Shown piece after piece: positions 26,452-28,849 of a stretch of 64,000 nucleotides of DNA. The position numbers and the translations under genes are program-made. The notes under the pieces are model-generated. The model was not told the DNA's origin, did not search any database, and was given only the letters and a program-made list of their open reading frames with translations. Each line of letters starts with the position of its first letter. Position 1 is the first letter of the stretch. The stretch is from a virus (taxonomy: Duplodnaviria; Caudoviricetes): IMG/VR virus record IMGVR_UViG_3300048861_000178, positions 32,001-96,000 of that record, one strand, 5' to 3'.

Positions 26452-26519
26452 CCTAGCAATTAGGGAAGTTAAATCATTTCCCTTATTCTTTCCATGAGTT
26501 GATCAATCAGGAGTTCATC

Positions 26520-26798
26520 ATGCAACAAGCACAAGCTGCACGTCTGAAGCACTACATCGTCTTTGGTCCGGTGAACCTCACCGAAGTGACCGAATGCCTG
26601 CAGCTCACGATGGCGCGCGCACAAGAAATCCGTGAACACTTCAATCGGTTGGGTGATGCGATCCCCGAGCAGATGAAGGGTGAGCTCAACCTGCTCAAAG
26701 ACCTGGCCGACCAGGCCCTCGAATACGGCGAACAGATCCTCGCCAATGCAAAGGCATCCTGTGGTGCACAACGTGTACCCTCTGTCACCCTGCATTAA
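26520..26798 (+). CDS. hypothetical helical protein
   Basis: CAGGAG RBS before ATG 26520; first gene after the early promoter. Confidence 0.65.
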   Translation: MQQAQAARLKHYIVFGPVNLTEVTECLQLTMARAQEIREHFNRLGDAIPEQMKGELNLLKDLADQALEYGEQILANAKASCGAQRVPSVTLH

Positions 26799-27332: not shown

Positions 27333-27349
27333 GAGCTGGTTCATATTAC
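27333..27349 (+). promoter_or_regulatory. putative early promoter
   Basis: GAGCTGGTTCATATTAC; compare GAAGCTGGCGATATATTAC at 30819. Confidence 0.55.
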
Positions 27350-27568: not shown

Positions 27569-27626
27569 GTTAGACCAAGTCCACTATCGCAACAACCTTT
27601 TACAACGTAAACAAGGAGTAATTAAA

Positions 27627-28187
27627 ATGGGTTTCTGGAGCAAATTTTTGGGTCGTGACGAAATCAACATCGACCAGCTCGAAGTCCTCTTCCACACAGA
27701 AGCCGCGTACTTCGGTGAACATGGCCGCCTCATTGCCAGCAACCGTTCGCTCGGCATCATCGAGAAGGAAGTGATCTTCTGCCTGAAGGGTCACACCAAG
27801 CCGCTGCCGCTGAACCATCGTCTGTTCGCGCACATCTGGAAGGAAGCGCAAGCGCAGGGCTTCATCCCCCTCGAACTCGCCAAGTACGGTTCGGTCATCG
27901 AGTCCGCGGAACCCGATGCCCTGGCTGCACACAAGCGCGTGCTGGCGATCATGGTCGAACACGGTCAGGCTCCGGCACTCGCCGATGGCCGTCAGGTGCT
28001 GCACATGAACCTGGGTGACAAGTCGGCAGCCGAAGCGGAAGCCGCTGTCTCGGGTGCGATGGCTTCGGCCGCTGCAACCAGCGGGCGTGATTACAGCAAT
28101 GTCGAAGTGCCTGCGTATCTGCGCAAGCAACAGGCTGAAGGCGAAGGCTTCCAGACGGCAGGCTTCGCAGCCGCTGCACAAAGCTAA
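27627..28187 (+). CDS. protein with N-terminal amphipathic helix and FtsZ C-terminal-peptide-like motif
   Basis: AAGGAG RBS before MGFWSKFLG; DYSNVEVPAYLRKQQ after an Ala-rich linker. Confidence 0.7.
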   Translation: MGFWSKFLGRDEINIDQLEVLFHTEAAYFGEHGRLIASNRSLGIIEKEVIFCLKGHTKPLPLNHRLFAHIWKEAQAQGFIPLELAKYGSVIESAEPDALAAHKRVLAIMVEHGQAPALADGRQVLHMNLGDKSAAEAEAAVSGAMASAAATSGRDYSNVEVPAYLRKQQAEGEGFQTAGFAAAAQS

Positions 28188-28189
28188 GT

Positions 28190-28247
28190 AAGCCAAGTCG
28201 AGGTGCTTCCTCTGGGGAGCACCTCCGCTGGGCTTCACTTTTTATTT
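28190..28247 (+). terminator. intrinsic terminator
   Basis: GAGGTGCTTCC-TCTG-GGGAGCACCTC core with an extended stem, then a T tract. Confidence 0.65.
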
Positions 28248-28273: not shown

Positions 28274-28849
28274 ATGTTGAGCAAACAGGTCAAGCAGCGT
28301 ATCGCATACAACAAGACAAAACGACAAGTGCCCGGCTGGAAGCGCGACTTGCGTGCTTTCTTCATCTCGCAGTTGCCCCCCGCCCAATCCATCCTGTCGT
28401 CCAAGCATTTCGTGGTGAAGGTGAGTGTACTGGGCGATGATGTTCTGACCCAAGAGTATCAGAACAAGCAGGCTGATGAAATCTTCAACAAGATCACCAC
28501 CTGGACACGCCATGACTGGCATGCCTACATCCGTTCGGGCGATGAAGCATACGCCCAGTACGTCGATCGTCGTGGTCGCATGCTGTCGGCTTATCGTTAT
28601 CGCCGAGCCGTTGTTCTGCCTGCTGATCCGGAGCAACTGGCTAAGGACTTCGAAGGCGACATGCTCAACGATCTGGCAGCCTGCGAATGCGGTCTCACGA
28701 TCGGCGAGCACAATCTCGGCGTGGTCTGCAAGGCTTGTAATACCGAAGTTCGCCATCCGACCCTTCGTCCGCCGACGCTCGACATCTACGGCCGGGAAAG
28801 CGACTACAAGAAGTTCCCCGACATCGATAAACCCGTGGAAGGAGAATGA
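28274..28849 (+). CDS. hypothetical protein with C-terminal Cys cluster (CEC..CKAC)
   Basis: GAGGAG RBS; possible zinc ribbon. Confidence 0.65.
   Translation: MLSKQVKQRIAYNKTKRQVPGWKRDLRAFFISQLPPAQSILSSKHFVVKVSVLGDDVLTQEYQNKQADEIFNKITTWTRHDWHAYIRSGDEAYAQYVDRRGRMLSAYRYRRAVVLPADPEQLAKDFEGDMLNDLAACECGLTIGEHNLGVVCKACNTEVRHPTLRPPTLDIYGRESDYKKFPDIDKPVEGE

Follow-up and report, generated by a model that had tools for sequence, protein, structure and literature searches.

A candidate mimic of the FtsZ tail in an early protein of a nucleus-forming jumbo phage

Introduction

Phages lambda/Rac, T7, T5 and P1 encode the division inhibitors Kil, Gp0.4, Hdi and Icd, respectively, each of which has FtsZ itself as its target; the first three are helical hairpins, and resistance maps to the core of FtsZ (PMC11897509). 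FtsA, SlmA and ZipA bind a common region of the FtsZ tail (PMC5832921), which ends in the conserved C-terminal peptide (CCTP or CTC; residues 370-383 in E. coli). Growth of E. coli is inhibited by FtsZ fragments spanning residues 354-383, although the affinity of ZipA for the lone peptide is low, with a KD of 20-35 uM (PMC10769210). Two residues of the same peptide, R379 and K380, are needed for degradation of E. coli FtsZ by ClpXP (PMC3983244). In the literature that we searched, mostly papers outside subscription, no phage mimic of the FtsZ tail was found.

The phage protein described here, P0001, was singled out from sequence alone as a candidate FtsZ C-terminal peptide mimic with a membrane-targeting helix, possibly a tethered decoy that titrates the anchors of FtsZ (the original prediction). 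We have followed up this proposal by computational analysis of the gene, its protein family and the FtsZ proteins of likely hosts.

Results

Gene layout in a nucleus-forming phage

The 64,000-nucleotide stretch of DNA that we analysed (the window) belongs to a 315,190-bp jumbo phage from soil. Among isolates, the nearest to it is Burkholderia phage FLC9, which infects B. glumae and B. plantarii and has been grouped with the Chimalliviridae (PMC12388082). Homologs of ChmA, PhuZ, PicA and the non-virion RNA polymerase, with matches to phiKZ gp54 (E = 3e-33), gp39 (7e-25), gp69 (4e-35) and gp55 (4e-80), respectively, mark this genome as that of a nucleus-forming (Chimalliviridae-like) phage. By analogy with FLC9, we infer that the host is a Burkholderiales species. 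Five Burkholderiales genomes were taken as likely hosts; all five encode FtsA and ZapD, and ZipA_C is found in four. The phage genome lacks an FtsZ of its own (no TIGR00065), its tubulin is the separate protein PhuZ, and Pfam gave no match to a tubulin GTPase domain in P0001.

The locus is composed of the following features, all on the plus strand of the window:

27342-27349, +: phiKZ-type early promoter core (C-ATATTAC, with ATATTAC starting at 27343), one gene upstream of P0001
27374-27568, +: gene for a 64-aa protein that contains a single hydrophobic segment, probably the first on an early transcript shared with P0001
27584-27618, +: unstructured A/C-rich leader with the Shine-Dalgarno sequence AAGGAG (27613-27618), near-identical in FLC9
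27627-28187, +: gene for the 186-aa protein P0001, ortholog of FLC9 gp303, PHROG 19581
27627-27656, +: N-terminal hydrophobic/basic segment, a putative amphipathic membrane helix judged by hydrophobic-moment comparison
27663-27902, +: conserved globular domain (N-domain, residues 13-92), a three-stranded sheet and a helix with an invariant His-Gly
27903-28088, +: variable Ala-rich linker (residues 93-154) with low conservation and low pLDDT
28089-28133, +: motif like the FtsZ C-terminal peptide (residues 155-169, core 160-166), defined by conservation and profiles
28146-28178, +: second conserved motif, G[FH]x[ST]AGFxAA (residues 174-184), column conservation 0.71
28186-28247, +: long imperfect hairpin followed by a U-run, a probable terminator (-32.8 kcal/mol, z -5.7)

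The open reading frame that had drawn attention by its MGFWSKFLG start is a plus-strand gene for 186 residues, as proposed, and the 15 residues likened to FtsZ are residues 155-169. A globular middle and an Ala-rich linker had also been read from the sequence, and both the AlphaFold model and the conservation among 18 close homologs agree with this description. Averaged over columns, conservation is 0.79 for the N-domain and 0.31 for the linker, and it reaches 0.81 in the FtsZ-like core and 0.71 in the second motif. AlphaFold places a compact domain at residues 15-90 and gives the tail low confidence, with pLDDT below 50 in stretches; when modelled alone, the N-domain has a pLDDT of 89.5. One element of the original prediction must be amended. 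The mimicry is well supported by conservation, by profiles built from phage proteins only and by copies of an internal host motif, but the FtsZ-like peptide is not C-terminal, because 17 residues follow it in P0001 and more than 100 in some relatives.

Conservation of the motif and its specificity for FtsZ

When compared with the E. coli FtsZ tail, the core of the phage motif is identical at six of nine positions and conservatively changed at the other three, exactly as had been counted. Conservation in homologs had been named beforehand as a test that could refute the proposal, and the motif is kept in all 18 close homologs (46-90% identity), with Pro and Arg invariant, while the linker diverges. 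Thus, the core consensus (D/E)(I/V)Px(F/Y)LR is present and conserved, and it is carried on a variable, disordered linker. Lys is found in 72% of the phage motifs, and the terminal Ala-Asp of the host peptide is not copied. At the Ile and Phe positions of the host terminal motif, the phage proteins favour Val and, in many cases, Tyr, a preference that we count against a decoy; two of the closest relatives of P0001 carry Phe, the host residue, at the Tyr position, which we count in its favour.

The strict motif occurs at a single site among the 1,875 ORFs of the phage genome (0.01 expected in shuffles), and the P0001 motif is also the best site in this genome under a host-derived matrix, at 20.6 bits compared with 9.3 for the next. 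A profile built solely from the 18 phage tails was then run against five whole Burkholderiales genomes in six frames, and its top match was the FtsZ C-terminus in every one (E = 0.001-0.008), an identity that was read out for one genome (G001) and assigned by open-frame length in the other four. The same profile found six matches in the PDB, all six of them FtsZ, and a full-length profile found a single PDB match, to P. aeruginosa FtsZ. These E-values are modest (0.001-0.8) because the motif is short, and it is the rank of the matches that constitutes the evidence.

Other searches contributed less. A tblastn search of phage genomes with the P0001 tail alone returned no match, and ESM Atlas gave feature matches below 0.9, including an FtsZ-named cluster at 0.84 that we treat as a lead only. 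The predicted complex of a Paraburkholderia-type FtsA with residues 145-186 scored 0.29 against a mark of 0.32 and was used neither for nor against the proposal. Judged by its sequence, P0001 very probably binds some partner of the FtsZ tail.

A second, internal motif in host FtsZ

Many Burkholderiales FtsZ proteins carry a second motif approximately 22 residues upstream of the terminal one, with the form P[AS]VWR and Asp-Tyr/Phe at positions -7/-6. Examples lie within the last 45 codons of the ftsZ loci L006, L050, L083 and L044, and P. aeruginosa FtsZ has a counterpart at residues 351-363. Our host set comprised FtsZ sequences of some 120 genomes, most of them from Burkholderiales. As the search pattern required the terminal motif plus an upstream Trp-Arg, though no other part of the second motif, the set tells us that the double motif occurs widely but not how frequent it is. 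We found no description of this second motif in the literature searched, again mostly papers outside subscription.

The phage motif fits both registers, in that its left flank follows the internal motif whereas its core follows the terminal one. At p<=0.01, 18 of the 18 close homologs match with the terminal matrix and 16 of 18 with the internal matrix. Three distant members (P0105, P0053 and P0049) copy the internal motif almost exactly, and P0053 and P0105 appear to hold the two motifs in tandem, as host FtsZ does. When viral contigs were scanned for the Trp-Arg motif, the matches came mostly from one unrelated family and chance frames and were uninformative.

The motif as an accessory on a conserved domain

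A profile search recovered 182 clusters of proteins of 85-428 aa, using a query profile that included the motif and that may inflate the share of carriers somewhat. All 165 family proteins examined pass on the N-domain alone. PHROG 19581 matches P0001 over the N-domain (E = 2e-16), and likewise all 118 aligned members of the family. Of 135 distant members that have a tail, 30 score significantly for the FtsZ-like motif (p<=0.01 versus shuffles with either host matrix; about 3 expected). Approximately three quarters of the family lack the FtsZ-like motif, including Ralstonia phages RP12 and FLC1-1B and Burkholderia phage FLC8, even though the hosts of these three phages have the same kind of FtsZ, and this absence also counts against a decoy. 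On a tree of the N-domain, the motif needs 19 changes, with at least 5 gains or losses forced by strongly supported branches; this is a quick tree of 79 columns, on which repeated gain and repeated loss look the same. Where members have enough flanking DNA, they are located between virion/fibre genes and thymidylate kinase. Because the domain is present in all members and the motif is optional, at the same gene position, we regard the N-domain as the core of the family and the FtsZ-like peptide as accessory. The original prediction had taken account neither of this optional status nor of the second conserved motif. The sequences point to a tail module that has been gained or lost on an older domain of about 80 residues. 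P0113 apparently has a duplicated N-domain ahead of a terminal FtsZ-like motif.

When the complete model and that of the N-domain were used for fold searches, there was no PDB match, and BFVD gave only the RP12 and RSF1 homologs. The best fold match, T7 Gp2, is at background level (Z 3.9, rmsd 3.4, 54 residues aligned). A likeness of the N-terminus to MinE was considered and dropped, as the strand-helix order differs from that of MinE, and the domain is absent from all host genomes examined.

The N-terminal segment and the second conserved motif

The membrane-targeting helix of the original prediction is supported only as a family trend, and weakly for P0001 itself. The N-terminal hydrophobic moment has a family median of 0.50, versus 0.37 for the other ORF starts of the genome (p about 1e-11, among members that are related to one another), and a combined helix criterion is satisfied by 45 of 165 family members versus 3 of 216 background starts. 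The moment of P0001, 0.50, lies at the 78th percentile of the ORF starts in its genome, which counts against a decoy. The segment evolves rapidly in sequence, and its binding to membrane is plausible.

The motif G[FH]x[ST]AGFxAA has no counterpart that we could find by searching the host genomes, and the conservation of such an element after an internal FtsZ-like motif likewise speaks against a decoy. A form of it, G[FH]x[ST]xGF, recurs in distant members, including P0040, P0055 and P0061, which are without a significant FtsZ-like peptide. Its other genome matches are mostly in non-coding frames, and a scan of viral contigs was dominated by related proteins of approximately 750 aa. A five-residue match to E. 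coli FtsZ 265-269 was rejected as chance, as Burkholderiales FtsZ differs there.

Transcription unit and flanking genes

P0001 had been described as lying downstream of an early-type promoter, with a strong RBS and its own terminator. The sequence supports the RBS and, as a probable feature, the terminator: AAGGAG ends 8 nt before the ATG, and the hairpin and U-run at the 3' end (z -5.7) have an equivalent 3' of the FLC9 ortholog (z -4.5). An early promoter core of the phiKZ type is also present, although at 27343 it precedes the 64-aa gene rather than P0001 directly. This core fits the phiKZ early-promoter consensus (PMC7058600). There are 16 copies of ATATTAC on the plus strand where 4 are expected. 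Copies lie before ChmA (C1:293268) and shortly upstream of PhuZ (C1:279067), and the core is also found about 90 nt ahead of the RP12 and FLC1-1B homologs. FLC9 gp304, homologous to the 64-aa gene product, precedes the FLC9 ortholog of P0001. By this arrangement of sequences, P0001 appears as the second gene of a two-gene early unit. A sigma-70-like promoter at 27599-27628 was rejected, since it overlaps the start codon and therefore cannot drive P0001.

The leader at 27584-27618 folds worse than 198 of 200 shuffles. Its 25-nt unstructured A/C-rich portion before the RBS (27584-27612) is almost the same in FLC9, where the proteins are only about 50% identical, and might be a translation enhancer or a protein-binding site.

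Two further observations concern neighbouring genes. A 191-aa ORF at 28274-28849 contains a Cys4 zinc-finger-like segment that matches the phiKZ gp55-type RNA polymerase subunit (PHROG 2987, E = 2e-8; phmmer, E = 4e-4); the true gp55-type subunit is encoded at C1:295435, and FLC9 has a 400-aa version in the place of this ORF. Several early proteins end in His (TLH, ATH or STH), including the product of 26499-26798 and FLC9 gp305, as do family members P0019, P0021, P0089, P0100, P0105 and P0115. This residue is perhaps part of a docking or degradation tag.

Similar cores in other viral proteins

Viral contigs were also scanned for the core, with at least 119 matches versus 11 for a permuted control. 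This count is driven by one cluster of large proteins, because 96 of the matches listed fall in it and 3 fall in the P0001 family. The cluster is unrelated to that family, and the genomes that encode it have T4-like genes for replication and packaging. Its core has the same Val/Tyr flavour as the phage tail and sits inside a longer module. The sequence DVPAYLRK is found at L158:3517-5481 (-), L202:1675-3054 (-), L144:1565-3523 (+) and about 90 more viral loci among the matches listed. The module has basic-Gly, Pro-Leu-Thr and Asp elements, and often lies immediately behind Glu-rich sites reminiscent of cuts by prohead protease. The L158 locus sits among T4-like genes, and one protein of the cluster matches PHROG 13484, a virion structural protein. 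These large proteins are possibly virion-delivered mimics of the FtsZ tail, and so the cluster could either broaden the mimicry or point to another partner.

The core was also observed in proteins encoded at L198:4337-4585 (+), L225:7365-7568 (-), L200:3779-4204 (-) and L224:1973-2947 (-). These proteins are small or unrelated, and three have the core at the very C-terminus. The end of the 67-aa L225 protein is identical to a host FtsZ end.

Discussion

On balance we lean towards the hypothesis that P0001 is a membrane-associated decoy for FtsA, ZipA or ZapD that delays septation, with binding, localisation and phenotype all judged from sequence. P0001 would be an early, non-virion protein directed at the host divisome by mimicry of a short linear motif. 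Its N-terminal helix would hold it at the inner membrane, where the peptide could dock in the groove in which FtsA, ZipA and ZapD take the FtsZ tail. Confinement to the membrane, and possibly self-association of the globular domain, would give an avidity that the lone peptide lacks. FtsZ filaments would then lose their anchors, the Z-ring would fail, and no septum would form through the phage nucleus at midcell.

The same evidence for mimicry would fit equally if the peptide were a landmark, one that binds FtsA or ZipA and brings the globular domain and its cargo to midcell while division continues; early vesicles, the nucleus, and capsid-assembly or lysis factors are candidate cargoes. An N-domain that is conserved and exists without the tail looks like cargo with an optional address. 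Moreover, a block of division by SulA mispositioned the phiKZ nucleus (PMC10328376), so that elongation of the cell disturbs its centring, and a phage of this kind would not clearly benefit from filamentation, a point against the decoy. Nevertheless, free FtsZ tail fragments are inhibitory (PMC10769210), and the strong RBS in an early unit suggests production in amounts that titrate anchors. The centring role is also already taken in this genome, which encodes a homolog of PhuZ, the protein established to centre the nucleus of 201phi2-1 and phiKZ. We consider such a landmark function unlikely.

Convergence offers another explanation, in which the peptide serves to dock some phage protein, or a host protein unrelated to division, and merely resembles FtsZ as another Pro-capped amphipathic helix. 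The presence of the core in the T4-like cluster, within a longer module, is in keeping with this possibility, and the approximately 750-aa proteins in the second-motif scan illustrate how one folded family can dominate a motif search. However, members of the family mirror both variants of the host tail, the Trp-Arg one included, and FtsZ is the best match in each of the five whole host genomes. Only one protein in the phage genome has the motif, and therefore it is not a tag shared among the proteins of this phage. A convergent resemblance of this kind seems to us quite improbable. Least probable of all is that the target is ClpXP (or MinC/SlmA), with the peptide serving as a protease decoy, an adaptor or a timer of its own turnover. 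The two FtsZ residues required by ClpXP (PMC3983244) correspond to an invariant Arg and a common Lys in the phage motif. Many family tails also have Ala-rich ends, which resemble ClpX tags. Yet the best-kept part of the motif is Val-Pro-x-Tyr/Phe-Leu, the hydrophobic face used by anchors; Lys is far from universal, Ala-Asp is missing, and the P0001 motif lies away from the free C-terminus.

A broader version of the preferred decoy hypothesis is that FtsZ-tail mimicry is a general strategy, used by nucleus-forming Burkholderiales phages and T4-like phages alike to cut FtsZ from its anchors. Either host tail motif would be grafted onto an early membrane protein in the former, and the Glu-flanked modules of the latter would be deliverable with the DNA. 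Both parts of this idea are tentative, and we regard them as doubtful. If the idea is true, betaproteobacterial FtsZ would have a genuine second docking site in its internal Trp-Arg motif.

If P0001 does impersonate FtsZ, this would be a new way to stop cytokinesis, as the phage division inhibitors that we found described attack FtsZ itself, and it would add a bacterial-virus case of short-linear-motif mimicry. It also bears on how nucleus-forming phages keep the septum off a nucleus at midcell. The groove that receives the FtsZ tail has long been pursued as an antibiotic target, and the natural Val, Tyr and Trp variants constitute a ready peptide library for it; they also draw attention to the second motif of betaproteobacterial FtsZ, which has been little noticed. 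The question is testable now, because the motif is present in cultured FLC9 (gp303) and the cultured relatives RP12 and FLC8 are natural controls without it.

Comparison with known systems

The nearest relatives of P0001 are FLC9 gp303, RP12 ORF225, FLC8 gp177 and the RSF1 homolog, which have the same N-domain and the same gene position. All isolate homologs in PHROG 19581 are annotated as hypothetical, and among those read (FLC9, RP12, FLC1-1B and FLC8) only FLC9 has the motif. Like FtsA, MinD, MinE and SepF with their membrane helices, the P0001 family has a short hydrophobic/basic terminal segment, although this is a resemblance only, given that such N-termini are common and the moment of P0001 is modest.

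P0001 would share with Kil, Gp0.4, Hdi and Icd the character of a small phage protein aimed at the Z-ring. It differs in that it would impersonate FtsZ towards its partners, and thus act from the other side of the interface, and its model is a beta-sheet with a helix rather than the helical hairpin of Kil, Gp0.4 and Hdi. No profile match links it to these four proteins, and none of them is listed by the fold searches, which could miss a relation.

The closest parallels are the FtsZ C-terminal peptide and the internal motif of Burkholderiales and P. aeruginosa FtsZ. P0001 resembles the FtsZ tail in its core, D/E-I/V-P-A-F/Y-L-R-K-Q, in the variable, disordered linker that bears this core, and in the hydrophobic residues at positions -6 and -3 relative to Pro. 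In contrast to FtsZ, it has no tubulin domain, its motif is attached to a phage domain that starts with a putative membrane helix, it prefers Val and Tyr, and its motif lies 17 residues from the end and is followed by an unrelated motif. In its internal position, the phage peptide instead corresponds to the second motif of host FtsZ, which is likewise internal.
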